DNA of 64,000 bases from Anaerolineae bacterium (GTDB lineage: Bacteria; Chloroflexota; Anaerolineae; Promineifilales; Promineifilaceae). A model generated the notes under the pieces. That model was given only the letters and a program-made list of their open reading frames with translations. It did no database searches and was not told the DNA's origin. Position numbers and translations under genes: made by a program. This document shows, one piece after another, positions 7,637 through 35,825 of this stretch (position 1 is the stretch's first letter; the number at the start of each line of letters is the position of its first letter). Location: positions 6,497-70,496 of the forward strand of contig JAHBVI010000004.1 in NCBI GenBank assembly GCA_019637635.1, read 5' to 3'.

Positions 7637-7677
7637 AATGAGTAGATTATACCACGAACAGGAAGGTAGACAGACGA

Positions 7678-10911: not shown

Positions 10912-10931
10912 AAGGAGCGCCTTAAAGAGCT

Positions 10932-12200: not shown

Positions 12201-12868
12201 ATCCCATTCGCATTCTTGTTGTGGATGACCACCAACTGTTCATTGAGGGATTGACCGCTTTGTTGAACGCCACGTCAGAAACGGCCGTTGTTGGCGAAGC
12301 GGCCACCGGTCAGGAAGCAATTACGCAGGCGACGGCCGTAGCCCCCGACGTGATCCTCATGGACATCCACATGCCGGACATGAACGGCGTAGAAGCCACC
12401 CGGCGCATCCTGAAAACGAACCCCCATGTGGGCATCATCATGCTCACCATGTTGGAAGACGACGCTTCCGTTTTTGCGGCCATGCGCGCCGGAGCGCGGG
12501 GCTATCTGCTCAAAGGCTCAAACCACAGTGAAATGCTGCAAACCATTCGCGCCGTTGCCCAGGGGCAGGCCCTCTTTGGCCCGGCCATTGCCCGCCGCAT
12601 CATGCACTTTTTCCAAATCGGCAGCCAGCTTACCGGCCCATCGGCCCCCGCCGAACCCTTTCCCGACCTGACTGAGCGAGAGCGCGAACTGCTGGCACTC
12701 ATCGCCCAGGGCAAAAACAACAGCGAAATCGCCGACATACTGGTGATCAGCCCCAAAACCGTGCGCAACCACATCACCAGCATCTTCAGCAAGCTACAAG
12801 TGGCCGACCGCGCCGAAGCCATCGTCAAGGCGCGCGATGCGGGTCTGGAGAATTGGGAGAGGGGCTGA
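12197..12868 (+). CDS. NarL/LuxR-family response regulator
   Basis: REC domain (VVDDH, ILMDIHMPDMNG, LLKG) plus LuxR HTH (LTERERELL..GKNNSEIA..ISPKTVRNH). ATGA overlap with the GT1 gene. Confidence 0.85.
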   Translation: MNPIRILVVDDHQLFIEGLTALLNATSETAVVGEAATGQEAITQATAVAPDVILMDIHMPDMNGVEATRRILKTNPHVGIIMLTMLEDDASVFAAMRAGARGYLLKGSNHSEMLQTIRAVAQGQALFGPAIARRIMHFFQIGSQLTGPSAPAEPFPDLTERERELLALIAQGKNNSEIADILVISPKTVRNHITSIFSKLQVADRAEAIVKARDAGLENWERG

Positions 12869-15284: not shown

Positions 15285-15295
15285 AGAGTTCGGAT

Positions 15296-19064: not shown

Positions 19065-19070
19065 CGCGCT

Positions 19071-19661
19071 TCAGGACGTTTCAGGCGACGGCCAAAGCTG
19101 ATGGAGGGGCAGGTTAAAGCCGGGCAGGATGTCAGTCAGGGTGAGGGTATCGTTTAAGGTGAATTCTTGAATATCGGTAGGGGAACGGTGGAGGGCGAGG
19201 GTTTGCTCCTCCGGTTCGACGATGAGCACGGCCGTGACCCCTACCTCAAAATACTCTTTAATATTCTTGCGCACCTCGCTCCACCGATCAGAGGGGGACA
19301 TCACTTCCACAATGAGTTCCGGGGCCACATCCATAAATCCACCCGGCGTCACCTGCGCCAGCCGTTCATGGGAGATGAACAACACATCCGCCCCGCGTAC
19401 CGTATCCGGGTTCCGCCGGGTGTATACGCCCACTTCGCCCACCATAACCACACCTAAATTATGTTCCTCCACAAAATTTCCCAAAAACCTTGCCATTTCA
19501 AATTCATAACGGCCATGTAGCATCTTTGCCGGACTCAACTTCACAACCCTCCCTTCCACCAGTTCACACCGGCCCAGGTCGCCCATCGCCGCCAACTCCT
19601 CGCCGGTAATGAGCGCCTCTTCGTTCAATTTGGACTGGACTAAATCTTGTTGTGCAATCAT
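19071..19661 (-). CDS. Uma2-family (DUF820) putative endonuclease
   Basis: Typical Uma2 layout (ELVEGRVV..SPA...H, ..GAD.. , PELIVEV.SPSD). Start moved to ATG 19661 (MIAQQD); the upstream extension runs into a heptamer array. Confidence 0.7.
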   Translation of the reverse strand: MIAQQDLVQSKLNEEALITGEELAAMGDLGRCELVEGRVVKLSPAKMLHGRYEFEMARFLGNFVEEHNLGVVMVGEVGVYTRRNPDTVRGADVLFISHERLAQVTPGGFMDVAPELIVEVMSPSDRWSEVRKNIKEYFEVGVTAVLIVEPEEQTLALHRSPTDIQEFTLNDTLTLTDILPGFNLPLHQLWPSPETS

Positions 19662-19744
19662 GCTTCTCACCCTGCCAGACAGTTTCATCCTACCCGGCTG
19701 CCCGGCAGTATACACCATAAGAGACAAAGGCCGAAACCCCACCA

Positions 19745-19779
19745 CCGATAACCGATTACCGATTACGGATTACCGATTT
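19745..19779. repeat. heptamer tandem array (CCGATTA x5, variants)
   Basis: ccgataa ccgatta ccgatta cggatta ccgattt. Contains the stop codon of the BCCP gene (..EIGNP*). Confidence 0.9.
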
Positions 19780-20266
19780 CCACCAACACCTCATCCCGCG
19801 CTACCGTCTGCCCTGGCGTCACATGCACGGCCGTGACCACCCCACGCAACGGCGCTCGAATTTCGTTCTCCATCTTCATCGCTTCCAGCACCAGGATGGA
19901 ACTGCCCGCTTCCACGGCGTCGCCCACCTGCACCCGCATGTGCGTGATCAGGCCGGGAATGGGCGCTTTGACACGGCCGTCGCCGCTGCGGGGTCGGCTC
20001 ACCACTGCATCCAGGTCTCTAATCTCCAGCCGGTGCAGCCCGCTAAACGCCTTGATCCAGGTGAGATGGGGATCCATGACAAACTCATACGGCCGTTCAT
20101 CCACCACCAACCACTCCAACTCCCCATGCAACAGCGCCGCCTCCGGCAGCAGCACCTTCACCCGCTGCCCATCCACCTCCACCTCATAGCCCGACCCATT
20201 CGGCGACGGCAAATTCAACATTACATCATACGTGTGCCCGTCTATGGTGACTTGTAAGTTACTCAT
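19763..20266 (-). CDS. biotin carboxyl carrier protein of acyl-CoA carboxylase
   Basis: C-terminal biotinyl domain with EAMKMENEI (biotinyl-Lys in the AMKM motif). Confidence 0.8.
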   Translation of the reverse strand: MSNLQVTIDGHTYDVMLNLPSPNGSGYEVEVDGQRVKVLLPEAALLHGELEWLVVDERPYEFVMDPHLTWIKAFSGLHRLEIRDLDAVVSRPRSGDGRVKAPIPGLITHMRVQVGDAVEAGSSILVLEAMKMENEIRAPLRGVVTAVHVTPGQTVARDEVLVEIGNP

Positions 20267-20279
20267 AACGCCCTTGTTT

Positions 20280-20349
20280 CGTAACCCGTAATCCGTAAAC
20301 CGTAAACCGATTACGGATTACGCATCACGGATTACGGATTACCGATTCT
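20280..20349. repeat. inverted heptamer arrays (CGTAATC-type x4 then GGATTAC-type x6), hairpin-forming
   Basis: Ten consecutive 7-nt units read directly. The second half is the reverse complement of the first. Spans the BC/BCCP junction and supplies the BC stop codon (..RRIGNP*). Confidence 0.9.
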
Positions 20350-21813
20350 CCTGCTTTCCCGATGCCAACCCGTCGCCAACCGTTCCGGGGCCGCCGGGTC
20401 AAACTGCTGGTGCCGCCGGATATAGGTGATGGCGGCAATCACCGCCAGGTCGCGCAAATGGGGCGCGGCTGCGCCGTTTTCCAGGGCAGGTTCTTTGAGC
20501 GAGCCGGTGTGGTAACGGCCGTTCACAAACCCCTCCGCCTGTACAATCTGCTGCAATAACGGGATGTTCGTCGGAATGCCCGCCGCCGCAAAATCGGCCA
20601 ACCCCTGGCGCAGCCGGGCCATGCTGGCCACCCGATCCGGCCCCCAGGTTGTGAGTTTGGCAAAAAGCGGCGCATACGCCGCCGGTACCGGGCAACCACT
20701 ATAAGCATAGGTGTCTACGCGAATATCTGGCCCCGTTGGCAGCCGCAGCCGCGTTAACTTTCCCGGACTGGGCAAAAAGTGGCGCTGGGGGTCCTCGGCA
20801 TAAATACGGGCCAACATGGCCCAACCGCGCAACTGAACGTCCGCCTGCCGAAATGAGAGGGGTTCTCCCGCCGCGACGCGCAGTTGCTCTTGCACCAGGT
20901 CTACCCCGGCGCGCATCTCCGTCAGTGAATGTTCCACCTGGATGCGGGCTTTGATTTCGCTAAAGTAGAAACAGCCCTCATCCGTGACCAGGAATTCCAC
21001 CGAGCCGACATTTTGGTAGTGGAAAAGATGGGCAATGGCAACGGCCGTGTCACACAACTTCTGTCGTTGCGCTGGCGCCAGGCAAGGGGCGGGCGACTCT
21101 TCCACCACCTTCTGGTTGTGGTACATAATCGAGCCTTCTCGCTCGCCCAGGCAAACCAGGTTGCCGTACCGGTCGCCCAAAACCTGCACGCTAATCTGGT
21201 GAGCGGGCATGATCGCTTTTTCCAGATACACACGCAAATCGCTGTAGTCGGCCTGCGATTCCTGTCCCTGGCGAATGGCAGCCGCCAGCCACGTGGACGA
21301 CGGGACAAGACGAGAGCCACGCCCACGCCCGCCCTGGTATGACTTGATGACCAGCGGGTAGCCCATCATGTCGGCCGCTTGCTGCAATTCAATGGCATCC
21401 TCACGGCCGTAAGCCTCCGGCGAACTCTCTACCGTCAAAAAACCGGCCTCCCGCACCCGCGCCAGCGCCGCCAGCTTGTCCCGCGTCTGCTGCAAAATTT
21501 CCGGCGACGGCCCAATAAAGGTCAGCCCCGCATCCAGACACGCCTGGGCAAAATCCGCCTCCTCCGCTAAAAAACCATAGCCGGGATAAATACCGTCCAC
21601 CCCCCGCACCTGCGCCAATTGCACAATCGCCGGGACATCCATAAAAAAGTCCGGCGACTCCACACGCACACATTCATCCGCCAGCCGCACATGCAGCGAA
21701 TTAATATCGGAGGGATCGTAGACGGCCACGGCCGTGACCCCCATCTCCCGGCACGCCCGCACCGCCCGCACCGCAATTTCCCCCCGGTTGGCAATTAGAA
21801 TCTTGTTGAACAT
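20332..21813 (-). CDS. accC: biotin carboxylase subunit of acetyl/acyl-CoA carboxylase
   Basis: MFNKILIANRGEIAVRAVRACREMG N-terminus and ATP-grasp motifs. Start moved to ATG 21813; the listed extension lies in a repeat array. Confidence 0.85.
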   Translation of the reverse strand: MFNKILIANRGEIAVRAVRACREMGVTAVAVYDPSDINSLHVRLADECVRVESPDFFMDVPAIVQLAQVRGVDGIYPGYGFLAEEADFAQACLDAGLTFIGPSPEILQQTRDKLAALARVREAGFLTVESSPEAYGREDAIELQQAADMMGYPLVIKSYQGGRGRGSRLVPSSTWLAAAIRQGQESQADYSDLRVYLEKAIMPAHQISVQVLGDRYGNLVCLGEREGSIMYHNQKVVEESPAPCLAPAQRQKLCDTAVAIAHLFHYQNVGSVEFLVTDEGCFYFSEIKARIQVEHSLTEMRAGVDLVQEQLRVAAGEPLSFRQADVQLRGWAMLARIYAEDPQRHFLPSPGKLTRLRLPTGPDIRVDTYAYSGCPVPAAYAPLFAKLTTWGPDRVASMARLRQGLADFAAAGIPTNIPLLQQIVQAEGFVNGRYHTGSLKEPALENGAAAPHLRDLAVIAAITYIRRHQQFDPAAPERLATGWHRESRRIGNP

Positions 21814-21833
21814 CTCCACCTTCCTGAATAGGG

Positions 21834-21900
21834 TGGCAGGTTGCAGGTTGCAAGTTGCAGGTAAAAGCACTCACCTGCCACTTGCTACTTGCCACTTGCC
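21834..21900. repeat. inverted heptamer arrays (TTGCAGG x4 / ACTTGCC x4)
   Basis: tggcagg ttgcagg ttgcaag ttgcagg - 11-nt spacer - acctgcc acttgct acttgcc acttgcc. Lies at the CT/BC junction. Confidence 0.85.
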
Positions 21901-21907
21901 ACCCTCT

Positions 21908-23467
21908 CTACATCGGCGAAATCCCATGTTTGCGGGCCACGTGCCGCTCCCGTTTGGAGAGTGTCAGTTCCAGCGCCCGGATCAGGGTGCGGCGCGTATC
22001 GCGGGGCTGGATCACATCATCAATCAGCCCCCGCGCCGCGGCCACATAGGGATTGTTAAAGCGCGTCTCGTAATCTTCTACCAACTCCTGCCGTCTGGCA
22101 TCCGGGTCGGCCGCTTCCTGCACCTCTTTGCGGAAGAGAATGTTGACCGCCCCTTCCGCGCCCATCACCGCAATTTCGGCATTGGGCCAGGCGTAGAGCA
22201 GGTCGCCGCGTAACCCTTTGCTGCTCATCACACAGTACGCGCCGCCATAACTCTTGCGCAAAATGACCATCAGCTTGGGCACGGTAGCCTCACTGTAGGC
22301 GTAAATCAGCCGCGCTCCGTTGCGAATGATGCCGCCATACTCCTGGTCTTTGCCCGGCAAGAAGCCGGGAACATCTTGCAGGGTGATGATGGGCACGTTG
22401 TAGGCGTCGCAAATGCGGATGAAGTGGGTGGCTTTGATACTCGCCTTGATGTCAATGCAGCCCGCCAGCACCATCGGCTGGTTGGCGACGATGCCCACCA
22501 CATACCCATTGAGCCGGGCGAAACCCACCACCATGTTTTGCGCCCACAGTTGATGCACTTCAAAGAAACGGCCGTCATCCACCAAACTGGCAATCACCCG
22601 GCGCACCTCATACGGCTTGTGTGGGTCGGTAGGTACGATTTCTTCCAATTCCGGGCAGGGGCGGTGGGGGTCGTCGAGCGGCCGCATATACGGCGGATCA
22701 TCCTGGTTATTGCCGGGCAGGTAACTGAGCAGTTCCCGCACCCGCGCCAGGCACTCTTTATCGTCGCCGGTCAGAAAATGGCAGACGCCGCTCTCCTGGC
22801 TGTGCATCAGGCCGCCGCCCAACTCCTCAAACGTCACGTCTTCCTGCATCACCGCCTTCACCACCTGCGGCCCGGTGATGAACATGTAGCTCTTCTCCGT
22901 CATAAACACAAAATCCGTCAGCGCCGGAGAATAAACCGCCCCACCCGCGCACGGCCCCATGATGACGGAAATCTGGGGGATGACGCCGGACGCCTCACAG
23001 TTAGCGTCGAAAATTTTGGCGTATCCGCCCAGGCTGTCTACCCCTTCCTGGATGCGCGCCCCGCCGGAGTCGTTGATGGCGATAAACGGGCAGCCATACT
23101 GCAAGGCCATACGCATCGCTTTGGCAATTTTGTTGGCGTGCATCTCCCCCAACGAGCCGCCCATCACGCTGGCATCCTGAGACGCAGCCATGACGTGACG
23201 GCCGTTGACCAGCCCAAAACCGACCACCACCCCATCGCCATAACGTGACCCCTTACCACCCACATAGTTCTCATACCGGGGCAGCGCCAGGGAATCAATC
23301 TCCTCAAACGTGCCCGTATCAAACAGCAAATCCAGCCGCTCACGGGCCGTCAGCCGCCCTTTGGCGTGTTGGCTGGTGGTGTCCTTCTCCGTCCCCCGCG
23401 CCTGGCACTTCCGCTTATCCAATTCTTCCTTGTAGACCTGCATCTCTTTAATCATCTTCAACCTCAC
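21908..23467 (-). CDS. acyl-CoA carboxylase carboxyltransferase subunit (PccB/AccD5-like, fused beta-alpha CT)
   Basis: About 520 aa. Motifs include GRLTARERLDLL, GGARIQEG, GPCAGGAVYSPALTDF and GGAYCVM, typical of the propionyl/acetyl-CoA carboxylase beta chain. Confidence 0.85.
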   Translation of the reverse strand: MRLKMIKEMQVYKEELDKRKCQARGTEKDTTSQHAKGRLTARERLDLLFDTGTFEEIDSLALPRYENYVGGKGSRYGDGVVVGFGLVNGRHVMAASQDASVMGGSLGEMHANKIAKAMRMALQYGCPFIAINDSGGARIQEGVDSLGGYAKIFDANCEASGVIPQISVIMGPCAGGAVYSPALTDFVFMTEKSYMFITGPQVVKAVMQEDVTFEELGGGLMHSQESGVCHFLTGDDKECLARVRELLSYLPGNNQDDPPYMRPLDDPHRPCPELEEIVPTDPHKPYEVRRVIASLVDDGRFFEVHQLWAQNMVVGFARLNGYVVGIVANQPMVLAGCIDIKASIKATHFIRICDAYNVPIITLQDVPGFLPGKDQEYGGIIRNGARLIYAYSEATVPKLMVILRKSYGGAYCVMSSKGLRGDLLYAWPNAEIAVMGAEGAVNILFRKEVQEAADPDARRQELVEDYETRFNNPYVAAARGLIDDVIQPRDTRRTLIRALELTLSKRERHVARKHGISPM

Positions 23468-23471
23468 GACT

Positions 23472-23528
23472 ACAACGGATGGGGAAATGAGCGGATGAAG
23501 AAAATCCGTTCATTTCGCCGTCCGTTGT
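23472..23528. repeat. 57-nt imperfect nested palindrome at the PPTase/CT junction
   Basis: acaacggatgg..aaatgagcggat-gaagaaa-atccgttcattt..ccgtccgttgt. Outer and inner arms are complementary, with 1 mismatch each. Confidence 0.75.
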
Positions 23529-23530
23529 TG

Positions 23531-24205
23531 TCACCCCACCGCAATCGTCAACACAAACCCATCCTCCACCCGCCACCAGCCGGTTAAGGGGGGGGCAGGG
23601 CGGGGCAAACGGCCGTTATCACAGCGAATGGCAAAGGGCGTCCAGATTCCCGGCGGCTGGGCCACCGGCTCAATCAGGCAGCTTACGGCGCGGGTGTTCA
23701 CCGACAGCCCCAGGTGCAACGCTTTCAACACCGCTTCTTTGGCGCTCCACACGGCCGTTTCCCAAACCACCCGCTCCTGCCCCACCAGCCCATACCCCAG
23801 AGCAATCTCCGCCAGCGTAAAATACTCTTCGGCAAAGCCCACCGGGCGTGACTGGATCAATTCTATATCGGCCCCGATGGGAGCGTGTGCTCTTTCGGTG
23901 GCGGCCACAAAGGCACGGCCGTGTGCATGACTGATGGAAATGGAAAAGCGGTGATCGGTAATCGGTAATCGGTAATCGGGGACGCCATCCGCGTTGTTGG
24001 TGATCGTGATCATGTCCAGGGGCAGCGTCACGCCGTTCGTTTCCCAGATGACGGTTTGCAGCAGCCGCTTGGCCGTCCAGCGCCCCAGCAGCCAATCCGC
24101 GCGCCGTTTGTCCGTCTTCAACTCCTGAAACCGCGCCAATTCCGTCTCGGTCAAATAATCACATGCCGGAATCTCGTGGTGCGTTTGTGTCAACCAATGA
24201 ATCAT
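23531..24205 (-). CDS. Sfp-type 4'-phosphopantetheinyl transferase
   Basis: PPTase motifs IGADIE and WSAKEAVLKA. Size about 220 aa. Confidence 0.75.
   Translation of the reverse strand: MIHWLTQTHHEIPACDYLTETELARFQELKTDKRRADWLLGRWTAKRLLQTVIWETNGVTLPLDMITITNNADGVPDYRLPITDHRFSISISHAHGRAFVAATERAHAPIGADIELIQSRPVGFAEEYFTLAEIALGYGLVGQERVVWETAVWSAKEAVLKALHLGLSVNTRAVSCLIEPVAQPPGIWTPFAIRCDNGRLPRPAPPLTGWWRVEDGFVLTIAVG
23949..23979. repeat. heptamer array (CGGTAAT x4) inside the PPTase coding sequence
   Basis: cggtgat cggtaat cggtaat cggtaat. On the sense (-) strand it reads ATTACCG and encodes ..DYRLPITDHRF.. Confidence 0.9.
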
Positions 24206-24226
24206 GGTAATCAGTAATCGGTAATC
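24206..24226. repeat. heptamer array (GGTAATC x3) abutting the PPTase start codon
   Basis: ggtaatc agtaatc ggtaatc directly 5' of ATG 24205. Confidence 0.8.
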
Positions 24227-24276
24227 GTCTGTCGAGCAATAACCGGCATCATCGTTTTGAGAAACCCCTTCCCCCT

Positions 24277-24362
24277 GTCATTCCGAACGAAGTCTTCGGA
24301 GTGAGGAATCTCTCACCTGTACAAATGGGAGGGATTCCTCCTCGAAGACTCGTCGGAATGAC
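24277..24362. repeat. 86-nt imperfect inverted repeat (about 30-nt arms), REP/MITE-like hairpin
   Basis: gtcattccgaacgaagtcttcggagtgaggaatc ... gattcctcctcgaagactcgtcggaatgac. Intergenic between the KR-DH and PPTase genes. Confidence 0.7.
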
Positions 24363-24391
24363 ACGAGAAAGTTCACATTATTTTGTTAACG

Positions 24392-26959
24392 CTACAAAGT
24401 GACCTGGCCTGGCAATGAAACTGTTTTGTAGCCCGTCAGGGTCAGGTAAACAGCGCCTTCCGTGTCCACAACCTGAGCGTTGAACTCTTCGCCGCCGTTG
24501 ACAGCTTCCACAATGGCATACAGGCGACGGCCGTCCACCACCTCCCGCTCCTGCCGATAAACCGATACCGCGCCAATCGCCAGCGGCAGGGCCATCGTCT
24601 GCCGCTGCCGGATTTGCCACACACCGGCCGTCTGGAAGCACAGTTCAATCAGGCGCGGGGCCAACAGTTCCAGCGCATCCGCCGGATTCATGTTAGGCGG
24701 CAAATTCTCCGCCAGCAGCCCAATCGCCCGGCTGCCTTCCACCTGCACCGCTTCTAGCACCTGATACGCCGGGCCGTGGAAGTAGATGTCATAAATCGCC
24801 TCTTTGCCGATGTCCAGTGTAGCCGGTGGGGTGAAATCAACCGACGCCACCTCTGCTGGTTTACGACTCATGCACACTGTAGCTGTAAAGTGCAGTTTCT
24901 CCTGCAAACCTCCTTTCAATTCACGGCGAGAATGGAGGGCCGCATACACCAGCAGATCGTCGCCATCGGGCACGGCCGTACCGCGCAAATACAACGTCTG
25001 CGGTTCCATCCGGTAAAACTTAAAGGGAGCGTGGAACTGTTCGTTGAATACGGCCGTGACGTGATAATCCGGCGCGATGGTCTGGGCCAATTCCGCAAAC
25101 GCCTCCGTCCCCATCACCCCCGGCAGCAGCGGCGTCCCCTCCATGGCATGGTCATAGAGAAACGGTTGCTCCTTTGGGTCCAACACCGTTTCCACTTCCC
25201 ACCCGCCATACACCTTCGCCGCCGCCAAGCCACCAACCAACAAAAACTCCTCTGCGCCCCCGCGTCTCCGCGTTAAAATCCCGCCGCTTTCATCCCACTC
25301 ATCCACCAGCAAACCCAGTTTGCCGCCCACCAGCACCTCGCCGCCGCCTACCAGCAACTCCCGGCGTACAGTGGGAATCCCGGCAGCCGGTGGCAGCATC
25401 TCAATGCCCGCATACTCCATAATCTTGGGAATCGAGCCGCGTGTGGCCATGCCTATGCCGCCCCAGGCCGTCCAGTCAATGGCAATCGCCTTTGTCTCTG
25501 GCCGTGTCCGTTGCCGGCTGCTGGTGAGTTTGCACAGCAGGTCATTGGCCGCGCTGTAATCCGTCTGCCCGGCGTTGCCAAAACGGCCGGCTACCGAACT
25601 AAAGACCACCGTCGCCGCAACAGGCAAATCCTGGGCGGCGTGCAGCAGGCTGTAAAAGCCGTCCGCCTTGATGTCATACACCAGGTCAAACTGGGCGGCG
25701 TCTTTCTGGTTCAGCGCCTTGCTGATTTCAATGCCGCCGGCATGAACCAGCACGTCAATCCGGCCAAACTGCTGGCGGATTTCGGCCACGATCCCGGTCA
25801 GGGCCTCATGGTCGAGCAAATTGACGCTGCGATACACGGCCGTGCCGCCAACCTTTTCCACCGCCTCAATCGCGCTCAACGCCGCTTCCAACCGCTCCAC
25901 CGCTGCCAGCTTCTTCTCAATCATCACCGGCGTCGGCTTTTCACCCGCCACCTTTGTTTCTTCAATAAGCTGCTGCTTCAAGGCATCCTTGTCGGCGCGG
26001 AAAAGGGCAATTTGGGGATCGGCGCGGTCGGGTTCCGGCGTCAAGTCCAGCAGGTAGAACGTGCCGCCGCTGGCTGCGGCCAGGTCGGCCACAATGGCGC
26101 TGGTAATGCCACCCGCCGCCCCCGTCACCAGGAAAACCTGTTTGTCTGGCTGTGGCCGGTGTCCCCACCGAGCCACGTCGGGTGGCACGGTCTGAAGACC
26201 GGCCACAGCATCATAAGTTGCGGGTTGTTCCATCAAGGTGATGGTGTAACGGCCGTCCCGCCAATACCCCACCTCCACACAACCCGGATCCGCCAGCGTT
26301 TCGGCAATCAGAAGGTCGGCAAAAGCGGCCGTTTTGCGGCTGGCCTCAAAATCTACGGCCTTCACCAGGACGGACGGCCGTTCCCGTTTATACGCTTTGG
26401 TAAAGCCGGTGACGCCGCCGCCCAACGGAGCGATTGCCGGTTCCGGCCCATAGCCATGCAGCCCGCCCATTCGTGTGGCGGATACCAGGAACGCGCCCGG
26501 TTCGCACACCGCGTCATACAGCGCCCGCATGGTCACAGCCAGGTTTTTCACCCGCACCCGGTTCGCCTCCCGCCAGTCAGCCAGGGACATCGTCGCCAGA
26601 TCAGGCTCCACGTCCAGCGCGGGCAGCCAGTAGACACCCTGCACCGGCCCTTCGGCCAGCCAGGTTTGCGCCTGCGCTGCTACCGCTTCGGCAGCCAGGG
26701 CCACGTCCAGCAGCAGCACGGCCACGCCCAGCTTTTCCAGCTTTTTAACCAGCGCCTTACCCACGCCGCCCTCGTCCAGGGCCACCACCACGCGGCTGGC
26801 TTCGTTTAAGAGGACGCCGGTTGGTTTGCATTGGGTGAGCGACGGCCGTAAGGCGGGCATCGGTACGCGGCGGGGCATCGTGTCCGCATCGGCCAGGGTA
26901 TATTCCGGTTCAATTTGGGGAATCAGGGGTGGCGCAGTGGTCGTCTCCGGGGCGACCAC
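24392..26959 (-). CDS. polyketide/PUFA-synthase-type ketoreductase + PS-type dehydratase protein (pseudo-KR / KR / DH)
   Basis: Rossmann motif FLVTGAAGGITSAIV and KR catalytic YSAAND. DH motif LYDHAMEGTPLLPGVMGTEAF (HxxxGxxxxP). GTG start 12 nt after the megasynthase stop. Confidence 0.8.
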   Translation of the reverse strand: MVAPETTTAPPLIPQIEPEYTLADADTMPRRVPMPALRPSLTQCKPTGVLLNEASRVVVALDEGGVGKALVKKLEKLGVAVLLLDVALAAEAVAAQAQTWLAEGPVQGVYWLPALDVEPDLATMSLADWREANRVRVKNLAVTMRALYDAVCEPGAFLVSATRMGGLHGYGPEPAIAPLGGGVTGFTKAYKRERPSVLVKAVDFEASRKTAAFADLLIAETLADPGCVEVGYWRDGRYTITLMEQPATYDAVAGLQTVPPDVARWGHRPQPDKQVFLVTGAAGGITSAIVADLAAASGGTFYLLDLTPEPDRADPQIALFRADKDALKQQLIEETKVAGEKPTPVMIEKKLAAVERLEAALSAIEAVEKVGGTAVYRSVNLLDHEALTGIVAEIRQQFGRIDVLVHAGGIEISKALNQKDAAQFDLVYDIKADGFYSLLHAAQDLPVAATVVFSSVAGRFGNAGQTDYSAANDLLCKLTSSRQRTRPETKAIAIDWTAWGGIGMATRGSIPKIMEYAGIEMLPPAAGIPTVRRELLVGGGEVLVGGKLGLLVDEWDESGGILTRRRGGAEEFLLVGGLAAAKVYGGWEVETVLDPKEQPFLYDHAMEGTPLLPGVMGTEAFAELAQTIAPDYHVTAVFNEQFHAPFKFYRMEPQTLYLRGTAVPDGDDLLVYAALHSRRELKGGLQEKLHFTATVCMSRKPAEVASVDFTPPATLDIGKEAIYDIYFHGPAYQVLEAVQVEGSRAIGLLAENLPPNMNPADALELLAPRLIELCFQTAGVWQIRQRQTMALPLAIGAVSVYRQEREVVDGRRLYAIVEAVNGGEEFNAQVVDTEGAVYLTLTGYKTVSLPGQVTL

Positions 26960-26970
26960 CAGGCCACCCT

Positions 26971-29900
26971 CTAGGCTTTTAAATCCGACGGCTGCTCCAC
27001 AACAACTACCAGATCAGGCCGCATCTCCCGCACAAACCCCACCACCTTTGCCAGTGTGTTGTAGTCGCGCAGGCTCAGGTCGTCGCGGCGAGGGATGTCA
27101 AACTCTTGCCGGATCGCCAGGAACGTTTCTGCCTGTTTCACCGTGTCTACCCCTAAATCCGCTTCCAAATCCAAGTCCATTTCTAGCATGTCCGTCGGGT
27201 AGCCGGTTTGTTCGGCCACGATGGCCAGCACTTTGTCGGCGATGGGATCGGAGATTGGAGATTGGAGATTGGGAGATTGAGAGATTGGGGGGGCGACCTG
27301 CTCACTGCTCACTGCCTGCGGACGCTGCGTCTGCCGCTCACTTTTCACCAGATCGGGCCGCATCTCGCGCACAAACTCCACCACCTTCGCCAGCGTGTTG
27401 TAATCGCGCAGGCTCAGGTCATCGCGGCGGGGAATGTTGAACTCGGTACGAATCGCCAGGAACGTCTCCGCCTGTTTCACGGTGTCTACGCCCAAATCCG
27501 CTTCCAGGTCTAAATCCATTTCCAACATATCCGTCGGGTAGCCGGTCTGTTCGGCCACAATCGCCAGGATTTTGTCGGCAACGGGATCGGAGATTGGAGA
27601 TTGGAGAGTAGAGATTGGGAGATTGGGAGATTGAGAGATTAGCGGAGCGACTTGCTCACTGCTCACTGCCTGCGGACGCTGCGTCCGCCGCTCACTGTCC
27701 ACTTTCTGTGCGCCACCATTTGCCGGCACCGCTTCCACTTTCACGGGGGCGGGCTGTGGCGTCACGGCCGTCGGCTGATTATTCACCGGCCTCGGCTGCA
27801 CCTGAACTGACGCGGGCATAGGCGATGGTACGGCATACGGCTCACGGGCTACGGTAAACGGATCACGGATTACGGCATACGGATTACCGCCCCTCGTCCG
27901 CATTACCGGTTCCGTGCCATACTGCCAGGTGGAGGGACACGGCCGTTTACCCGGCGCACCCCTGGCTACAATGCGTAAATTCCGCTTTTCCACTTCCAGT
28001 TCCGCATAATCGTAGCCGCTGATGGCGTCCAGCCATTGCTGGTAACGCGGTTTGCTGTCCACCCGATCCAGCGCGCCGGGAATGCGCCGCGTCAGCGTGA
28101 GGGAAATTTGCGAACCAAAACCGGCGGCCAGATGCAGCGCGTACTGCACCGGATAACGCCCACCCCGGCTCAGGTTCAACTCGCCCAAATCGGGGTCAAC
28201 TTCTTTGTAATTGGGCACTGGCGGCACAATGCCGTGTTCCAGGATTTTGAGGGCGATCACATCTTCCACGCCCACGCCCATGGGATGGCCGGTGAACCCT
28301 TTGGTATTGGCCACCACAATCTCTTTGGCTGCTTCGCCAAAGGTTTGGCGCAGCGCCACTACTTCCGCCGAGGCCGAGCCGCCCCGCGCCGGGGTATACG
28401 TTTCGTGGGACATAAAGACCAACTGTGGCGCGATGGTGTAGCGATTCAGGCCAAAGCGGTATTCGGCAACAGTCATCAGGTCGTTCATCACCTGGGCAAT
28501 GTGATCCACGTCCAACCGCGAGCCATGAAAGGCGCTGTTGCGGGTTTCGCTGCTCAGTAGCTCCACAATGCCGCGCATCCCCCGCTCTTGCACCGCGTCT
28601 TCACTTTCCACCACCAGCGCACAGGCGCCCATGCCCAAGATGGTGCCATGCCGCCGTTTGTCAAAAGGCAGCGCGGCTTCTTCCACCCGGTCATCGGTAG
28701 CGGCTGCCCCCAGCGCCAGGAAACCGGCGCCAATCCATTCCAGCAGGTGGTCGCCGGTCACATCATCGGCAGCAATGACCAACACGCGGCGGCAACGGCC
28801 GTTCCTGATCCAATCCTCCGCTATGCCAATTGCCTGGGTGGTGCTGGCGCAGGCCGCATTCACCTGCGTATTGGGGCCGCGTGCGCCAATGTACTCGGCA
28901 AACTGGCTGTGCCCCATGGAGAGAATGCGGAAGATGAAGCGCCGGTCAAAGACATACGCCTCTCGCGCCAGCGTCTCACGCAGGTCATTGATGCGCCGCG
29001 TGATTTCCAGCAAGGTCTGGTTATCGGTGCAGGTTCGGCGCAGTTGATCCAGCATCTCCAACTGCTCGACGCGATTCTGGTAAACGTAGAAGCGTTCAAA
29101 ATCTTCCACAAACCGGTCACCGCCGGGGAAGGCGCTGGCAAAAATCACGCCCGTCTCGTCGCGCAATGACTCCGGCAGCATCCAACGCTGCGGCAGGTAA
29201 GAGCCATTGCTGGTATTTTTGTAGGTCATCACCAGGGGGATGCCCGCTTCGCGCAGGGCGTCCAGCCCGGCGGCAAAGGCCAGTTGCGTGGTCACATCCA
29301 GCGAATCCACCAGCTTTTGTGGCACGCCGTATTCGGCCGCCAGGTCAAAGGTTCCGGGACGGCCGGCCAGTTTGATCACGTCATCGCTGTTGTCAATGGG
29401 GGCAAAACTGCCACCGCCATTTTCGTCTTTGATCAGCCGGGTGATCCGCTTGCCCACCATCTTGCGCCGGAAACGTTCAGGGATCAGGTCTACAAACTGT
29501 TCACCCTGCAAAATGCGCCAGGCGTTGTCCGGGGCCATCACCGCCTTCTCCGCCCCCGGCAGCCCCAGCCCCGTGCCGCTAATGACGACGGAGCCGAGAG
29601 GGGGGTGGGCGCGGTTGTACGGCTGCGCCGAGATTGGAGATTGGAGATTGGAGATTGGGAGATTGGGAGATTGGAAGGCGTTCATTGGCTGCCCGGTTGT
29701 TTCCGGGGCTACGGCCGTAGCCATCCCGTTTGTTACTTTCATCACAGGTTCCTCCATTTGGTTAACTGAAGTAAGAGTTAGAGTCCCGGTTTTAATCTCT
29801 AATCTCCGATCTCCAATCTCTGTAACATAACCCGCCGCATACAATGCGCACAATGCCTGATTAAAAGCGGGCAGTTCGCCGGGTTTGGGATGGTTGGTCA

Positions 29901-32607
29901 TCAGGGCCAGCACATCGTTTTTGTCTTTAAATACATCGTTGGCAAAACCGCGCAGGGCGCGTTTGGGGCCAACTTCCACAAAGGTGCGCACACCAAAGTC
30001 ATAGAGCGTGTGCAGCCCTTTCACCCATTGCACGGTGGCGGCCACCTGTTGTTGCAGGTTGTCTTTGATGGCATTTACCGTTGTCGGGTAAAAATCACCC
30101 GTCACATTGGTCACAATGGGTAAGGTGGGCGGGGCGATGTGCAGCCGATCCAGCACCCGGCGCAGCGGCGCGCTGGCAGGGGCAATGATGCTGGTGTGGA
30201 AGGCGTGGCTGACGGGGATGATCATCGCCTGAAAGCCCGCTTCCTGGAAAAGGGTCACGGCCGTTTCCACCGCCGCACTCGCTCCGCCAATCACACATTG
30301 GCTGCTGCTGTTGATATTGGCCGGAATGACGTAACCGTCCACCTGCTTCAAGGTGGCCTCGATTACGTCATACGGGGCCAGGACGGCGGCCATCTTGCCG
30401 TTGTCGTCCAGCTTCAAATGAGCCATCTCGCCGCCCCGTGCCGCCGCCGCTTCCAGCGCATCGGCAAAGGGCATAATGCCGGCCACAATCAGCGCCGCAT
30501 ACTCACCCAATGAATGACCCATCACCACATCCGGGCTGAAACCAAACGATTCCAACAGCCGGTACATGGCAATGTCCATTGTCAGCATCGCCGGTTGGGT
30601 GATTTCCGTTTGCATCAGGTCAAAGGTGGCTTTGTTCACGGCGGCGTTATCGTTCGGGTCAACAAAAATGTAATCGGTCAGCGGTTGGCCCAAAATCGGC
30701 TTCATCACCGCATCCGCTTCGTCAAAAACGGCCTGCACTTCTGGATAGAGCGCGGCCAGTTCGCGGCCCATGTTCACATACTGGCTGCCCTGGCCGGGGA
30801 ACATGAAGGCAATCTTGCCTTCCGGTTTGCCTGCACCACGATAAATGCCCTGCGCCTCCATCGCTTTCCACGCCGGCGGCGAGTCAGAGACCATCACCTT
30901 CTGCGCCTTTTGCAGCCGATCCAGCAGTTCCACCTGATCGCCAAAATCAATAAACAGCCGCTCATTAGCGGCAATAACCATCGGTTCGGGCAGTTCTCGC
31001 GGCGGCGTCCAACCCGTCTCCACCCGACTGAGATATTGGTCTAGTTTCTCCTTCAATTCCTGCGGCGTCGCCGCACCAATGGCGGCAATGCCGCGTGGGG
31101 GAGATTGGAGATTGGAGATGGGAGATGGGGTTGAATCTCCAATCTCTACTCTCTGATCTCTCTTCTCCACCGCAAACACCTTCTTCGGCTGCGTCAGTTC
31201 ACCAGGGCGGTGTTCTTCCAACACCAGATGGAAATTGGTACCACCAAAGCCATAGGCGCTGACGCCGGCGCGGCGGGGTGTGCCGTTGGGTGGTTCCCAG
31301 GCACGGCCGTCGTGCAGCAAATAAAACGGCGTCTGGCTGAAATCCACATAGGAATTAGGCGGGTTAGCATTCAGCGTCGGCGGCAGGATTTTGTGGTGCA
31401 AGGCCATCACGGTTTTGAACATGCCGGCTGCGCCCGCGCCGGCCTTCAGGTGGCCGATGTTGCTCTTGACCGACCCCAGGCCGATGCTGTTTGGCCTGGC
31501 ATAACCAAATACGGCTGCCAGACTCTCCACTTCGGCCACGTCCCCCACCGGGGTGCTGGTGCCGTGCGCTTCCACCAGGGTGGCTGTGGCCGGGTCCAGT
31601 CCCGCCGCTTCCCAGGCGCGCTGCATGGCTAACTGCTGCCCGATGGGGTTGGGCGCGGTGATGCCCTTACCTTTGCCGTCACTGGCCCCGCCCACACCAC
31701 GAATGACGGCGTAAATTTTGTCGCCGTCCCGTTCTGCGTCTTCCAGCCGTTTCAGCAGGAAGAGGGCCGCCCCTTCACCCATGACAAAACCATCGGCGCC
31801 ATCACCAAACGGCCGTGTGCCCGTCGCACTCAACGCCCCAATTTTGCAGAACTTCACAAACGGCCCAATGCCCATATTGCGGTCTACGCCGCCGGTGATC
31901 ACCGCGTCTACCTTGTGTTCAAAAAGCAGTTCCAGCGCCGCTTCCACGGCGGCAAAGCTGGAGGCACAGGCGGCGTCGGTGATGAAGTTGGGGCCGCGCA
32001 AATTGAGCATGTTGGCGATACGGCCGCTGACGATGTTGGGCAGTTCGCCGGGCATGGAGTCTTCGGAAATGGGTGGGTACTGCTCGTCAATGTGGTCATG
32101 CCAGCCGGCCAGGATGGCCTGGCGGGTGGGCGTGGGCAGGGCGGCAAATTCGGACACGGCCGTCAGCGCCCGCGCATAGTTGGGGAAGACGATCCGTTCG
32201 TTGGTGGTGTAGTGCAGTTCCCCGCCCATAGCCGTGCCGATGATAGTGGCGGTGCGTTCGGTGTCTAACGGCCGTACCGGATGCCCATAATCGGCCAGCA
32301 CGTCGGCGGCAATGGTCAGCGCCCACTGCTGCCCCTCGTCCATGGCCGCCGCCACTTTGGGCGGCATCCGAAAACGCTTCCAATCAAACTGAAAGCCCCG
32401 CACCCAGCCGCCAATTTTGGTGTATGTCTTGTCTGGCGCTTTAGGGTCGGGGTCGTAATAATCGGCAATAGACCACCGCTCCGGCGGCGTTTCCGTGATG
32501 CTGTATCGTTTGTTGAGGATGTTTTGCCAGAATGTGGCTGCGTTCAGCGCCTCCGGCATAATGGCCCCCACCCCCACAATGGCAATGGCTCGTTCACTTG
32601 AGTCCAT
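26971..32607 (-). CDS. type I FAS/PKS megasynthase: KS - AT(malonyl) - KS(2, with insertion) - ACP-like - ACP-like
   Basis: KS1: DAACASS / EAHGTST / [11 protein letters not shown]: FPGQGSQ, GHSLGEY, HAFH. KS2: NAACASTT / SHETYT / TGHPMG. Two carrier domains with [11 protein letters not shown]. Start set to ATG 32607 (MDSSER) with GGAGG 6 nt upstream. Confidence 0.85.
27251..27287. repeat. GAGATTG heptamer array in the inter-ACP linker (coding)
   Basis: gagattg x3 then ggagattg agagattg. The sense strand encodes ..[11 protein letters not shown].. Confidence 0.9.
27589..27641. repeat. GAGATTG heptamer array in the pre-ACP1 linker (coding)
   Basis: ggagattggagattggagagtagagattgggagattgggagattgagagatta. 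Encodes ..[18 protein letters not shown].. Confidence 0.9.
27827..27889. repeat. nine-unit NNNACGG heptamer array inside the megasynthase coding sequence
   Basis: ggtacgg catacgg ctcacgg gctacgg taaacgg atcacgg attacgg catacgg attaccg. Encodes [21 protein letters not shown]. Confidence 0.85.
29630..29674. repeat. GAGATTG heptamer array in the AT-KS2 linker (coding)
   Basis: gagattg x4 plus ggagattg x2. Encodes ..[18 protein letters not shown].. Confidence 0.9.
29793..29820. repeat. opposite-orientation (CAATCTC-type) array 120 nt from the 29630 array, also coding
   Basis: taatctc taatctc cgatctc caatctc. Encodes ..[10 protein letters not shown].. Could pair with 29630-29674 in the mRNA. Confidence 0.85.
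31101..31168. repeat. inverted heptamer arrays (hairpin) in the KS1-AT linker (coding)
   Basis: gagattg gagattg gagatgg gagatgg ggttg aatctcc aatctct actctct gatctct cttctcc. Encodes ..[24 protein letters not shown].. Confidence 0.9.
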
Positions 32608-32625
32608 GAGATACCTCCGCAAAAA

Positions 32626-32698
32626 GGAGATCGGAGATTAGAGATTGGAGATTGGCGTTCGCTGGACGACCAATCTCTAATCTTCAATCTCTAATCTC
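32626..32698. repeat. inverted heptamer arrays at the ACAD/megasynthase junction
   Basis: ggagatc ggagatt agagatt ggagatt gg - 14-nt loop - ccaatct ctaatct tcaatct ctaatctc. Overlaps the ACAD stop codon. Confidence 0.9.
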
Positions 32699-34349
32699 AA
32701 CGAAATGCTTTATTCAACTGCTCTGCCGCAAAATCCATATCCCCCACCAGCCCCTCCTGCACGGCATAAATGCCGGGCAGGTCGAGGGATTGGGCTAATG
32801 CCGGATCAGTCTGCCCCGCGCCGATGGCCCAGCGCAATCCTTCGGTGGCAACTTTGAGGGCGGCGTCACGGCCGTGAATCCGGCTGAGCGCCTGCCGGGT
32901 GGGTACGTCCAGGTGGATGGCTTCGGTGGGTTTGTCGGCTACCCGTTCGGCGAAGATGGCGGCCGTTTCCGCGTAGGCGATGAGTTCACCCAGGCGGAAC
33001 AGCACATGCTGGCTGCGCGTCAGCCGATCCAGGCGACAGCGTTCCAAAATAACGGCCAACGCCCGCATGGCCAGGGCCGCATAATTGGCCCCATTCTCCG
33101 GCTGCTCCTGGTGGATGAGCGAGAGGCGGTTGGCCCACTCCTTGTAATAATCGCCGCGTGATTTCAGATGCAACTGCCAGCGGTCGCGGGCAATCGTCCA
33201 CTCCATAATCTCCGACGTGCCTTCGTAAATGGTGGTGATGCGCACATCGCGCTTGATTTTTTCCACCAGATACTCTTTGGTGTAACCGTATCCGCCGTGG
33301 GCCTGGATAGCATCTTCGGCCGCTTTGTTGCCTGCTTCGGTAGCCATGTATTTGGCCACCGCCCCTTCCGTTTGCAGCCCTTCTTCGCCGCTGTCCAGCC
33401 GTTCGGCCACCCATTCAATGTAGCTGCGGGCCGCTTCCAGCCGGGCGGCGTTGGGCACAATCAGCTTGTGGGTGTAGCCTTGTTTCTGGCTGAGGGGTGC
33501 GCCGCCCTGGATGCGCTCTTGTGAATAGCGAATGGCGCGTTTGAGGGCCTCCCAGCCCGCGCCCAGCCCAAACGCGCCCACCATGAGACGGGTGTAGCCA
33601 AAAACGGCCTGCGCCTGGGCCAATCCCTGCCCTTCTTGCAGACCCACCAGCCGGTCGGCGGGCACGTAGACGTTATCGAGGAAGAGAGCGGCCGTGTTGC
33701 TGGCGCGGATGCCATGTTTGTCTTCCGGTTTGCCGCGTGTGAACCCTTCGCTGTCCCGGTCTACGATGAACCAGCTTGGCCCACCGGGGGCCAGCGCCAG
33801 GATGGTGTACAGATCGGCCACACCGCCGTTGCTGATCCACTGTTTCTGCCCGGAGATGCGGTAGCCGGTGACGACGCCATTTTCAATAACAGGTTCGGCT
33901 TTGGTGGTCATGGCGGCTAAATCGGAACCGGCCTGCGGTTCGGTAGCGCCATAGGCCATGAGCAGTGCTTCTTCAGCGATACGGCCGTACCAAACCTTCT
34001 TCTGCTCTTCTGTCGCCCCCACACTGATAGGGTCGGAGCCGAGAAAGGTAGCCAGGACGCCGGTAGCCACACCCAGGTCAATGGCGGCCATCAATTCGGC
34101 CACGCGGTAAATGTCATACGCGCCGCCGCCCAGCCCATCATATGCTTCGGGGATGAAGAGCAGGTGCAGCCCCAGAGACATGGGGTCATACAGTTCTTGC
34201 AAAACTTCGTGGGGGAATTCGTCGTTGTGGTCTAGTTTGAGTAGATAATCGGGGGTGAGTTTTTTGTCAGCATACTTTTTCAGGGTGTCCAGGATCATGT
34301 CGCGGGTTTCTTTGTCCAGGCCGACGGCCGTTTCTTCCATCTTTAACAT
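32697..34349 (-). CDS. acyl-CoA/acyl-ACP dehydrogenase-family flavoprotein with an approximately 150-aa C-terminal extension
   Basis: ACAD motifs ([34 protein letters not shown]). 550 aa versus about 380-400 for canonical ACADs. Confidence 0.8.
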
Positions 34350-34371
34350 CGCTCTCTCCTCTTTATCAGGG

Positions 34372-34440
34372 AGCAGTCAGTAGTCAACAGTAAACAGTAA
34401 GCCGTGCGATCACTGCTTACTGTTCACTGCCCACTGCTCA
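34372..34440. repeat. inverted heptamer arrays (NNACAGT x4 / ACTGNNN x4) just upstream of the ACAD start
   Basis: gagcagt cagtagt caacagt aaacagt - spacer - actgctt actgttc actgccc actgctc. Confidence 0.85.
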
Positions 34441-34472
34441 CTTTTCAAACATGCGGATCAGGGTGCTTTGAT

Positions 34473-34488
34473 TGTGGAATAATTCACA
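34473..34488. promoter_or_regulatory. CRP/FNR-type palindrome TGTGG-N6-TCACA
   Basis: tgtggaataattcaca read directly, one mismatch to TGTGA-N6-TCACA. About 125 nt upstream of the ACAD start, in the low-GC 34446-34757 divergent intergenic region. Confidence 0.3.
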
Positions 34489-34757
34489 ATATCCGATGGT
34501 ATTGTAGGCCAAATGGGGGGGAGACCAGAGTGACAAGTGTCATATGATACATAGGCGAAAAGCATAATGCAGTGTGTCATTAGCACAACACCCCAACAAA
34601 CAGGGGATATTTACAAGCTGTTAGAAAGTTTGTAACCTATAGCCAGTATTATGCAGCTGTATCTGATTCAACACAGTAAATCAATTGCATAGCTCACTCA
34701 GATTTCTGTATTGGCACTAATTCGTAAAGTTATTCAACAAGTGGAGGAAGTATTGAA

Positions 34758-35825
34758 ATGGCTAAAATGACAACTGCTTTAGTTTCCCGTTTTGTGTCCC
34801 CCCAGGTCAGGCAAAAACCCCTCGTCAGTTTGATTGTGCCTACGCTCAATGAAGAGCGCAATCTCCCCCAACTTTTTGCTTCAATCCCTGACATGGTGGA
34901 TGAGGTGGTGTTGGTTGACGGCCGTTCCACCGACCGCACCGTGGCATTGGCCAAAGAATTACGCCCAGACATCGTCGTTGTCCACCAGAAAGGCAAAGGC
35001 AAGGGCAACGCGCTGCGCCAGGGTTTTGAAGCCGCCAGCGGCGAGATCATCGTGATGATAGACGCCGATGGCTCTACCAACCCCGCCGAAATCCCCAACT
35101 TTGTGGGCGCTTTGTTAGCCGGCGCCGATTTTGCCAAAGGCTCTCGTTTCATGCAGGGTGGTGGCACATCCGACATGGAACCGCATCGGTATCTGGGCAA
35201 TCAGTTTTTTGTCTGGACGGTGCGCCTCCTGTTTGGTGGCAAATATACCGACCTTTGCTATGGCTACAACGCTTTCTGGACCTGGACACTGCCGCTGTTA
35301 AACCTCAATGGCGATGGTTTTGAAATCGAGACGATGATGAACGTGCGGGCGCTGCAAGCCGGCCTGCGTGTGGCCGAAGTGCCCAGCTTTGAAAACCGGC
35401 GTTTTATGGGCCTTTCTAACTTGAATGCTTTTCGGGATGGATTCCGCGTTTTGGGCACCATTTTTAAGGAATGGCTCAATAATCCCGGTCTGCGCGCCGT
35501 GAAAAAACATGAAAATTCGGTCGCCCAGGAAACCTTTGAAGAAGCCTTCCACGCCCTGCTGGAAGATACAAACGAATTTGTGAAAATGAGCCACCAGTTG
35601 CCCAATGACCGGTTAAAGCATTTGGCTGCCAAACTGCTCGTTCGCTTCGACGCCCTCATGTCCACCGAGATGAACTGCGCCGTCTGCCACGAACTGCAAA
35701 CGCGCTATGCCGAACATTACCGGGACATTTACGCCAACTACTTGCTCTCGTATATCCAGAAGGACAAGGGTGGGGCGGCGCCACTCCCTCAGCCCGTTTT
35801 CCAAACGGCGCCTTTGTCCCGCTAA
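34758..35825 (+). CDS. GT2-family glycosyltransferase (dolichol/polyprenol-phosphate hexosyltransferase-like) with C-terminal extension
   Basis: VSLIVPTLNEE..., DGRSTDRT, and DADG (DxD) motifs typical of DPM1/GtrB-like GT2. Confidence 0.75.
   Translation: MAKMTTALVSRFVSPQVRQKPLVSLIVPTLNEERNLPQLFASIPDMVDEVVLVDGRSTDRTVALAKELRPDIVVVHQKGKGKGNALRQGFEAASGEIIVMIDADGSTNPAEIPNFVGALLAGADFAKGSRFMQGGGTSDMEPHRYLGNQFFVWTVRLLFGGKYTDLCYGYNAFWTWTLPLLNLNGDGFEIETMMNVRALQAGLRVAEVPSFENRRFMGLSNLNAFRDGFRVLGTIFKEWLNNPGLRAVKKHENSVAQETFEEAFHALLEDTNEFVKMSHQLPNDRLKHLAAKLLVRFDALMSTEMNCAVCHELQTRYAEHYRDIYANYLLSYIQKDKGGAAPLPQPVFQTAPLSR

Follow-up and report, generated by a model that had tools for sequence, protein, structure and literature searches.

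A Type R secondary lipid synthase operon from an Anaerolineae bacterium, with threonine-bearing acyl carrier domains and a candidate enoyl reductase of the acyl-CoA dehydrogenase family

How does a multidomain lipid synthase that carries no enoyl reductase (ER) domain complete its reductive cycle, and what kind of chain does it make? The question is raised by a locus in a 64,000-nucleotide stretch (the window) of contig JAHBVI010000004.1 of an Anaerolineae bacterium (phylum Chloroflexota; metagenome-derived assembly GCA_019637635.1). Between positions 19763 and 34349, on the minus strand, the open reading frame (ORF) listing shows seven co-directional genes with intergenic gaps of 11-186 nt. 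They encode a flavoprotein of the acyl-CoA dehydrogenase (ACAD) family, a megasynthase borne by two polypeptides, an Sfp-type phosphopantetheinyl transferase (PPTase), and the carboxyltransferase (CT), biotin carboxylase (BC) and biotin carboxyl carrier protein (BCCP) of an acyl-CoA carboxylase (ACC). A preliminary description had proposed this single minus-strand operon, its gene identities, and a reading as a non-canonical, Pfa-like type I fatty acid synthase (FAS) or polyketide synthase (PKS) with its own PPTase and ACC. All seven genes are where it had placed them, and the domain annotation that it called for, performed with Pfam and NCBIfam and completed with motif positions from the translated ORFs, bears the reading out domain by domain. 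We regard it as fairly probable that the operon encodes a Type R, Pfa-like iterative synthase that uses the ACAD as its ER, possesses threonine-bearing acyl carrier protein (ACP) domains served by its own PPTase, and delivers a saturated product.

The domain order itself has been catalogued before. In their 2011 survey, Shulse & Allen (PLoS One 6:e20146, PMC3098273) defined the Type R secondary lipid synthase by the order KS-MAT-CLF-ACP(3-6)-KR and a downstream PPTase with a P1b'-type motif, hShxH, in Roseiflexus, Koribacter, Solibacter and Elusimicrobium; they also pointed out an ACC gene within the cluster of Koribacter, and reported no product for the type. The window matches this order, with KS1-AT-KS2-ACP-ACP and then KR-DH, and its PPTase, 186 nt downstream, contains ISISH. 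Its synthase is 67% identical to the proteins of Roseiflexus, one of the genera on which Type R was founded, and the Acidobacteriota members are also homologous over their full length. The operon is a split-gene, two-polypeptide member of Type R. Its architecture is hence not new, contrary to what the preliminary description had implied; what stands of that claim is that the family has no known product. No characterisation of Type R since 2011 was found in the full-text literature searched, where the domain order is described only in PMC3098273.

Two differences separate the window from the Type R definition: it has 2 ACPs rather than 3-6, and its synthase is split behind the ACPs into two adjacent genes. 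The split is common to its nearest relatives (73-91% identity) and is therefore inherited; a sequencing artefact was considered and rejected on this ground. Several features of the operon are not part of the published description, which omits the DH at the C-terminus, the ACAD upstream, the threonine of the ACPs and the fact that the "CLF" has its catalytic set intact; the words "serine", "threonine" and "acyl-CoA dehydrogenase" are absent from it (PMC3098273). The ACAD-type ER and the threonine ACPs with their dedicated PPTase thus appear to be undescribed features of the family.

The ACAD (550 aa, 32697-34349), identified by Pfam, NCBIfam, PDB sequence matches and AF2/Foldseek, has the N, M and C Pfam domains at residues 14-388 (core 14-389), followed by ~160 extra C-terminal residues that form a helical domain (residues ~400-550). 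Its catalytic Glu376, in IYEGTSEI, aligns at the MCAD-E376 position in PDB matches (E ~1e-57) and is invariant in 30 homologues. The C-terminal extension has no Pfam, NCBIfam or PDB sequence match. Over its full length the AF2 model is matched best, by Foldseek, by 2z1q, 3owa, VLCAD and ACAD9. AcrC is the top NCBIfam match, and 6fah (CarC) and 5ol2 (the Bcd/Etf complex) are among the PDB matches; CarC, Bcd-EtfAB and AcrC are ACAD-family enzymes that work reductively. The homologues also include dehydrogenases acting on carrier proteins, the prolyl-ACP dehydrogenase 4irn and RedW/PigA.

In Leptofilum, Oscillochloris, Caldilineaceae and Leptospiraceae, too, the gene immediately upstream of the synthase codes for an ACAD, of 544-555 aa. 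In a tblastn search over 85 loci, the ACAD core (64-89% identity) and the C-terminal extension were both found adjacent to the synthase on its upstream side, in the same orientation, wherever the upstream DNA suffices, three Anaerolineaceae loci excepted. Two of these three keep DNA past the PPTase, and both carry there a convergent protein with PfaD_N, NMO and FabD_helical_ins domains, which by this domain content is a PfaD-type ER. An enlarged set of loci was obtained by a metagenome scan seeded with this PfaD-bearing clade. It contains a third, marine clade (TARA and ocean metagenomes, loci L141-L165), with a KS2 ~45% identical, in which the gene of a 263-aa protein stops 2 nt short of the synthase start. 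All of the twelve best NCBIfam matches of this protein are to FabI models, and its identity to E. coli FabI is 37-44%. Among the loci in which both flanks are informative, the ER partner beside the core is the ACAD only in 58, a PfaD-type protein only in 16 and a FabI-type protein only in seven; one locus (L140) has none, and in no locus do two occur together. The window and L063 also carry the ACAD, besides these 58.

The preliminary description had seen in the window no ER of the PfaD/NMO type and the ACAD as the only extra redox enzyme. The former holds by tblastn and by domain calls, and tblastn gives no PfaD-type match in any ACAD-bearing locus either. The latter understates the case: the ACAD is a conserved, co-inherited partner, replaced by recognised ERs in sister clades. 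ACAD identity and KS2 identity to the window proteins are correlated over 79 loci (r = 0.905), which fits with the two being inherited and transferred together. Because two unrelated families of enoyl-ACP reductases fill the same place in the sister clades, and because KR and DH already yield the trans-2-enoyl intermediate, the ACAD is probably a trans-acting ER.

It could be argued instead that the ACAD is an oxidative tailoring acyl-ACP/CoA dehydrogenase that makes or keeps a 2,3-double bond, or a bystander of β-oxidation, and that any enoyl reduction is left to a FabI/FabK encoded elsewhere, or that the product is unsaturated or hydroxylated. Such a role would suit the characterised ACAD homologues that act on carrier proteins, all of them oxidative (the prolyl-PCP dehydrogenases, 4irn, for example), the lack of a linked electron donor, and locus L140, with no ER of any kind nearby. 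It fits poorly with the 58 : 16 : 7 mutual exclusion and its lack of any co-occurrence, with the co-inheritance of ACAD and synthase across phyla, and with the redundancy of a 2,3-dehydrogenase next to a KR and a DH that already make the trans-2-enoyl intermediate. We judge it improbable. Known enoyl-ACP reductases include FabI, FabK/PfaD, FabL and FabV, and no report of an ACAD-type one was found in the full-text literature searched; if the reductive role is true, it adds the ACAD fold to this list and raises the question of the electron donor for lipid synthesis.

A few observations on these flanking genes may be recorded here. Locus L154 exemplifies the marine layout, with the FabI-type gene at 5656-6447, the synthase at 6449-15241 and the PPTase at 15253-16020. 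In some marine loci the DH region has a weak similarity to FabZ (35% over 90 aa), and the ACPs are still of the threonine type. The neighbours of L140 are a mechanosensitive channel and a UDP-glucose dehydrogenase. In four Chloroflexia/Caldilineaceae loci the ACAD gene is directly preceded, on its own strand, by that of a FabH (KAS III) homologue, ~44% identical to E. coli FabH (L040:3542-4693, L053:~3624-4595, L032:~1377-2348 and L031:1-525); this may be an enzyme dedicated to primer selection, or no more than a FAS II gene that happens to be linked.

The second distinctive feature resides in the ACPs. In ACPs, the 4'-phosphopantetheine arm is attached to a conserved serine at the N-terminus of helix II. 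Both ACPs of the window, ACP1 (residues ~1678-1759, 27349-27591; assigned by alignment and motif) and ACP2 (residues ~1791-1872, 27010-27252; assigned by alignment and a Pfam PP-binding match at residues 1796-1863), have a threonine at this position and keep a fold-level PP-binding match. Thr1714 and Thr1827 stand opposite the modified serine, without a gap, in pairwise and profile alignments to the discrete AcpP of the window and to solved ACPs (PigH 5y08, Aquifex 2ehs, Plasmodium 2fq0/3gzl). Their codons differ, ACC (27481-27483) in ACP1 and ACG (27142-27144) in ACP2. The residue is threonine in 471 of the 472 ACP motifs of 120 homologous proteins, and in 463 of 464 motifs from 166 DNA sources that span all three ER clades and all phyla. 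The two exceptions, a copy in L105 and a copy among the 120 proteins, read LGIDIVK (Ile) in one case and Lys in the other, and are presumably dead copies within tandem arrays.

The accompanying PPTase (224 aa, 23531-24205; Pfam, NCBIfam and motifs) has the 4PPT_N and ACPS two-domain architecture with intact motifs, ISISH, GADIE and WSAKEAVLK, the last two agreeing with the Sfp-type patterns GxDxE and (W/F)SxKE(A/S)xxK, and in nearly all loci a PPTase gene follows the synthase. Since the synthase needs its thiol arm and is under strong purifying selection, we infer, solely from conservation, that the threonine is modified by this PPTase. In E. coli, an ACP with the change S36T is not open to modification (PMC3340395), which may explain why a dedicated PPTase is ever-present. 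A threonine attachment, if true, would be an exception to the serine rule and a natural orthogonal PPTase/carrier pair for engineering.

A wider proposal joins both features. The phosphopantetheine would be set on the threonine only by the co-encoded PPTase, as an orthogonal pair insulated from AcpS, AcpH and FAS II, and the VLCAD-like ER would be fed by the electron transfer flavoprotein (ETF) or the quinone pool and not directly by NAD(P)H, tying lipid synthesis to the respiratory or bifurcating flavin network. This is a tentative idea, to which we give somewhat less than an even chance.

The preliminary description had also singled out the second ketosynthase, KS2 (residues ~1010-1575 of subunit 1, 27898-29595), as retaining its catalytic residues and hence not being a chain-length factor (CLF), although it occupies the position of the Type R "CLF". 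Alignment to the Thermus FabF 1j3n places Cys1258, His1406, Lys1441 and His1446 in the catalytic positions. These residues are invariant in family alignments, the CHKH set being found in 164/164 loci from all three ER clades; therefore, the domain labelled CLF by Shulse & Allen is, by motif, a competent ketosynthase. A classical KS/CLF pair was considered and rejected, as the second KS keeps its catalytic cysteine and the full set, and the "CLF" position would gain a new role in the Type R family, that of a real ketosynthase. KS1 and KS2 probably share the work, either between priming and elongation or by chain length.

KS2 had further been credited with a helical insertion of ~90 residues ahead of its active-site cysteine. 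Its N-terminal half is indeed ~87 residues longer than that of FabF, and the FabF alignment starts only past the segment concerned, for which AF2 predicts a helical hairpin (residues ~1169-1220 of subunit 1, 28963-29118) with helices at construct residues 163-191 and 195-214 (pLDDT 76-91).

The two synthase polypeptides complete the picture. Subunit 1 (26971-32622; Pfam, NCBIfam and motifs) is an ORF of 1883 aa from a TTG, and the NCBI protein of 1878 aa, which probably begins with the ATG at 32607, is 100% identical to it. It begins with a PfaA-like KS1 (residues 11-470, 31213-32592; Pfam, NCBIfam omega_3_PfaA and motifs), with its cysteine in DAACASS (from residue 216) and histidines in EAHGTST (351) and SNIGHLK (387). 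The acyltransferase (AT) follows at residues 603-903 (29914-30816; Pfam, NCBIfam and motifs), with GHSLGE and the malonyl-specific HAFH motif. Subunit 2 (855 aa, 24392-26959; Pfam, NCBIfam and motifs) is formed by an N-terminal structural (pseudo-KR) region, a KR at residues 276-500 with TGAAGG and S...Y...N motifs, and a PKS-type double-hotdog DH at residues 586-852, whose HxxxGxxxxP motif is HAMEGTPLLP, with His604. Neither polypeptide has a thioesterase (TE) or ER domain by Pfam or NCBIfam. Downstream of the PPTase come the PccB/AccD-type CT of the ACC (519 aa, 21908-23467), the BC (512 aa, 20332-21870) and the BCCP (167 aa, 19763-20266), all three called by Pfam and NCBIfam; the pairing of a malonyl-specific AT with an ACC in the operon, as first described, is confirmed.

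From these parts the following cycle can be proposed. BC, BCCP and CT, being co-transcribed, would make malonyl-CoA, and the HAFH acyltransferase would load malonate onto the two tandem ACPs. KS1 and KS2, both catalytically complete, would carry out the condensations, probably divided by chain length or between priming and elongation, and the KR and then the PKS-type DH would convert the product to trans-2-enoyl-ACP. The adjacent VLCAD-like ACAD, working in the reductive direction, would act in trans as the ER, so that each cycle would end saturated. The PPTase of the operon would be specialised for threonine, so that the synthase would neither depend on the housekeeping AcpS/AcpP system nor be open to it. 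As there is no FabA-type dehydratase/isomerase, a saturated acyl chain, probably a long one, would be expected as product, and not a polyunsaturated fatty acid (PUFA); a VLCAD-like reductase and tandem ACPs suggest long chains and a high flux.

Could the operon encode a true PUFA, heterocyst-glycolipid (Hgl) or olefin (Ols) synthase, with a polyunsaturated or hydroxylated very-long-chain product? Its tandem ACPs and its PfaA-like KS1-AT and KR-DH regions recall such systems: the NCBIfam model omega_3_PfaA (TIGR02813) matches subunit 1 with 752 bits (residues 11-913) and subunit 2 with 158 bits, but the combined score stays under the cut-off of 1010. Neither in the window nor in the loci did the analysis find a FabA-type DH/isomerase, PfaB, PfaC, a thioester reductase, or a sulfotransferase/TE offloading domain. 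The larger ORFs of the window include no FabA-type DH, so that the FabA-type DH pair is missing as the preliminary description had it, and no NMO/PfaD, ETF or fab gene besides acpP; PfaC, with its KS-CLF and two FabA-type DH domains, has no counterpart, no FabA-type domain being present among the window ORFs. Lacking a FabA DH and matching offloading domains, these synthase types were rejected as assignments. Moreover, an ER partner stands beside the core in all loci with both flanks informative but L140, which argues for full reduction. A product of this kind is very improbable.

Several points nonetheless weigh against a saturating Type R synthase with an ACAD as ER and threonine ACPs. What the sequences show directly is the domain content, the catalytic motifs, the gene order, the mutual exclusion of the ER types and the threonine conservation; the direction and substrate of the ACAD, the modification of the threonine and the product are all deduced. 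The three ER classes follow distinct clades, so that the 81 ER-bearing loci represent far fewer independent events. NAD(P)H is not the usual electron source of ACADs, and no ETF or other electron-donor gene is linked, either among the larger ORFs of the window or in the relatives' loci examined. The ACAD model has a mean pLDDT of 64 and a weak core, only its β-domain and C-terminal helical domain being usable; that of KS2 has a mean of 48.7 and is poor outside the hairpin, which lies ahead of the active-site cysteine. No report of a natural threonine-linked phosphopantetheine was found in the full-text literature searched. There is no TE for chain release.

The same genes could also be the main housekeeping FAS of the organism, replacing FAS II, with the ACC as principal source of malonyl-CoA. 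What bears on this is seen through the 64-kb window of the source genome. E. coli FabZ, FabI, FabH and AcpP sequences were used as queries over it, and of the FAS II genes only acpP was matched. The discrete AcpP, overlooked in the preliminary description together with the ACP threonines, is a 79-aa protein (54393-54629, plus strand), 55% identical to E. coli AcpP, with a canonical EADSLD serine motif; its gene adjoins paaABCD-like genes (51226-54129) and not a fabD-fabG-fabF cluster. Because the same window encodes AcpP and the synthase ACPs, the genome has, by motif, both a serine-type free ACP and threonine-type tethered ACPs.

A housekeeping role would agree with the position of acpP outside any fabD-fabG-fabF cluster, with the co-transcription of the ACC genes in the window and in most Chloroflexota relatives, with the very high sequence conservation and wide distribution, and with a domain set that, together with an ER, amounts to a complete saturating FAS. 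Opposed to it are the canonical, discrete AcpP itself, the FabH genes beside the cluster in four relatives, and the Leptospiraceae and several other loci without a linked ACC. The 2011 survey found Chloroflexus without the cluster, and reported fabA/fabZ to be lacking only in Type M and Type S hosts, with the Type R hosts that it examined, including Roseiflexus, not listed as exceptions (PMC3098273). On balance this alternative is somewhat disfavoured, and we consider it unlikely without dismissing it.

The Type R synthase is widespread. Homologues number in the thousands; the best 120 are almost all from Chloroflexota, namely Promineifilaceae, Ardenticatenaceae, Caldilineaceae, Leptofilum, Roseiflexus, Oscillochloris, Chloroploca, Kouleothrix and Viridilinea, with one Leptospiraceae protein. 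Most relatives are single fused proteins of 2800-3200 aa, KS-AT-KS-ACPn-KR-DH, with 2-6 ACPs. A KS2 profile scan of one genome per GTDB species yielded at least 592 confirmed stretches, and the matches listed beyond Chloroflexota come from Acidobacteriota, Myxococcota, Binatia, a KSB1/Deferribacteres metagenome-assembled genome (MAG) and others. The order ACAD-synthase-PPTase(-CT-BC-BCCP) is kept in Leptofilum, Oscillochloris, Caldilineaceae, Leptospiraceae and many more, and the CT gene is syntenic in most Chloroflexota loci. The conservation of the operon is far beyond chance, its gene order being kept in dozens of genomes from several phyla. Relatives thus occur in hundreds of species-level genomes, including those of abundant wastewater, soil and hot-spring Chloroflexota and Acidobacteriota, and the synthase may supply a membrane lipid, bulk or specialised, that matters when biomarkers are interpreted.

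Variants of the carboxylase part occur. A set of Acidobacteriota and other loci (L069, L071, L072, L075, L076, L083 and L084) has a different BC/BCCP (~33% identity) and a distant CT, placed after the DH end of the synthase and ahead of the PPTase, as in the Koribacter arrangement of 2011. The Leptospiraceae loci L003 and L004 have no linked ACC. In the Oscillochloris MAG Kiruna_bin-09937 the synthase region is found on two contigs (L046 and L049), which could mean either that there are two paralogous clusters or that the bin is heterogeneous in its strains.

Within subunit 1, a recurring proline/serine linker peptide and its variants are observed at residues ~498-512, 984-1000, 1664-1680 and 1782-1793, that is after KS1, after the AT and ahead of each ACP; a second repeated stretch precedes each ACP. 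The neighbours of the operon in the window are glycosyltransferases, regulators and a Uma2 nuclease, none of them syntenic elsewhere. The gene of the latter, a putative endonuclease (19071-19745, minus strand), starts 17 nt past the BCCP stop; it was considered as a component of the system and rejected for its lack of synteny in other loci. An unrelated Uma2 gene lies upstream of a Leptospiraceae cluster (L003:2867-3469). A scan of positions 18500-35500 found three promoter-like sites where 7.3 would be expected and 20 terminator-like ones where the expectation is 19.1, and is uninformative.

Compared with the canonical Pfa system (pfaABCDE), the operon shares the PfaA-like KS-MAT...ACPn-KR-DH backbone, the tandem ACPs, the iterative logic and a dedicated Sfp-type PPTase, which is PfaE in Pfa. 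It has neither PfaB nor PfaC with its pair of FabA-type DHs, and exhibits an ACAD where Pfa has PfaD; a second, catalytically complete KS is inserted between the AT and the ACPs, and the attachment residue of the ACPs is threonine, whereas it is serine in Pfa. The megasynthase also differs from bacterial and eukaryotic type I FASs in having no integrated ER or release domain (TE/MPT). The ACAD possesses the same core, catalytic glutamate and general plan as the VLCAD-type enzymes (human VLCAD and ACAD9, T. thermophilus 2z1q, B. anthracis 3owa), which end in a helical C-terminal domain of ~150 aa, but its extension has no detectable sequence similarity to theirs, and its gene context points to a reductive, biosynthetic role on ACP-bound substrates rather than to β-oxidation. 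Bcd-EtfAB, CarC and AcrC, which have the same fold, are the precedents for this reductive direction; they use CoA thioesters and a co-encoded EtfAB, whereas the ACAD of the window has no linked etf genes and presumably acts on an ACP-bound substrate.

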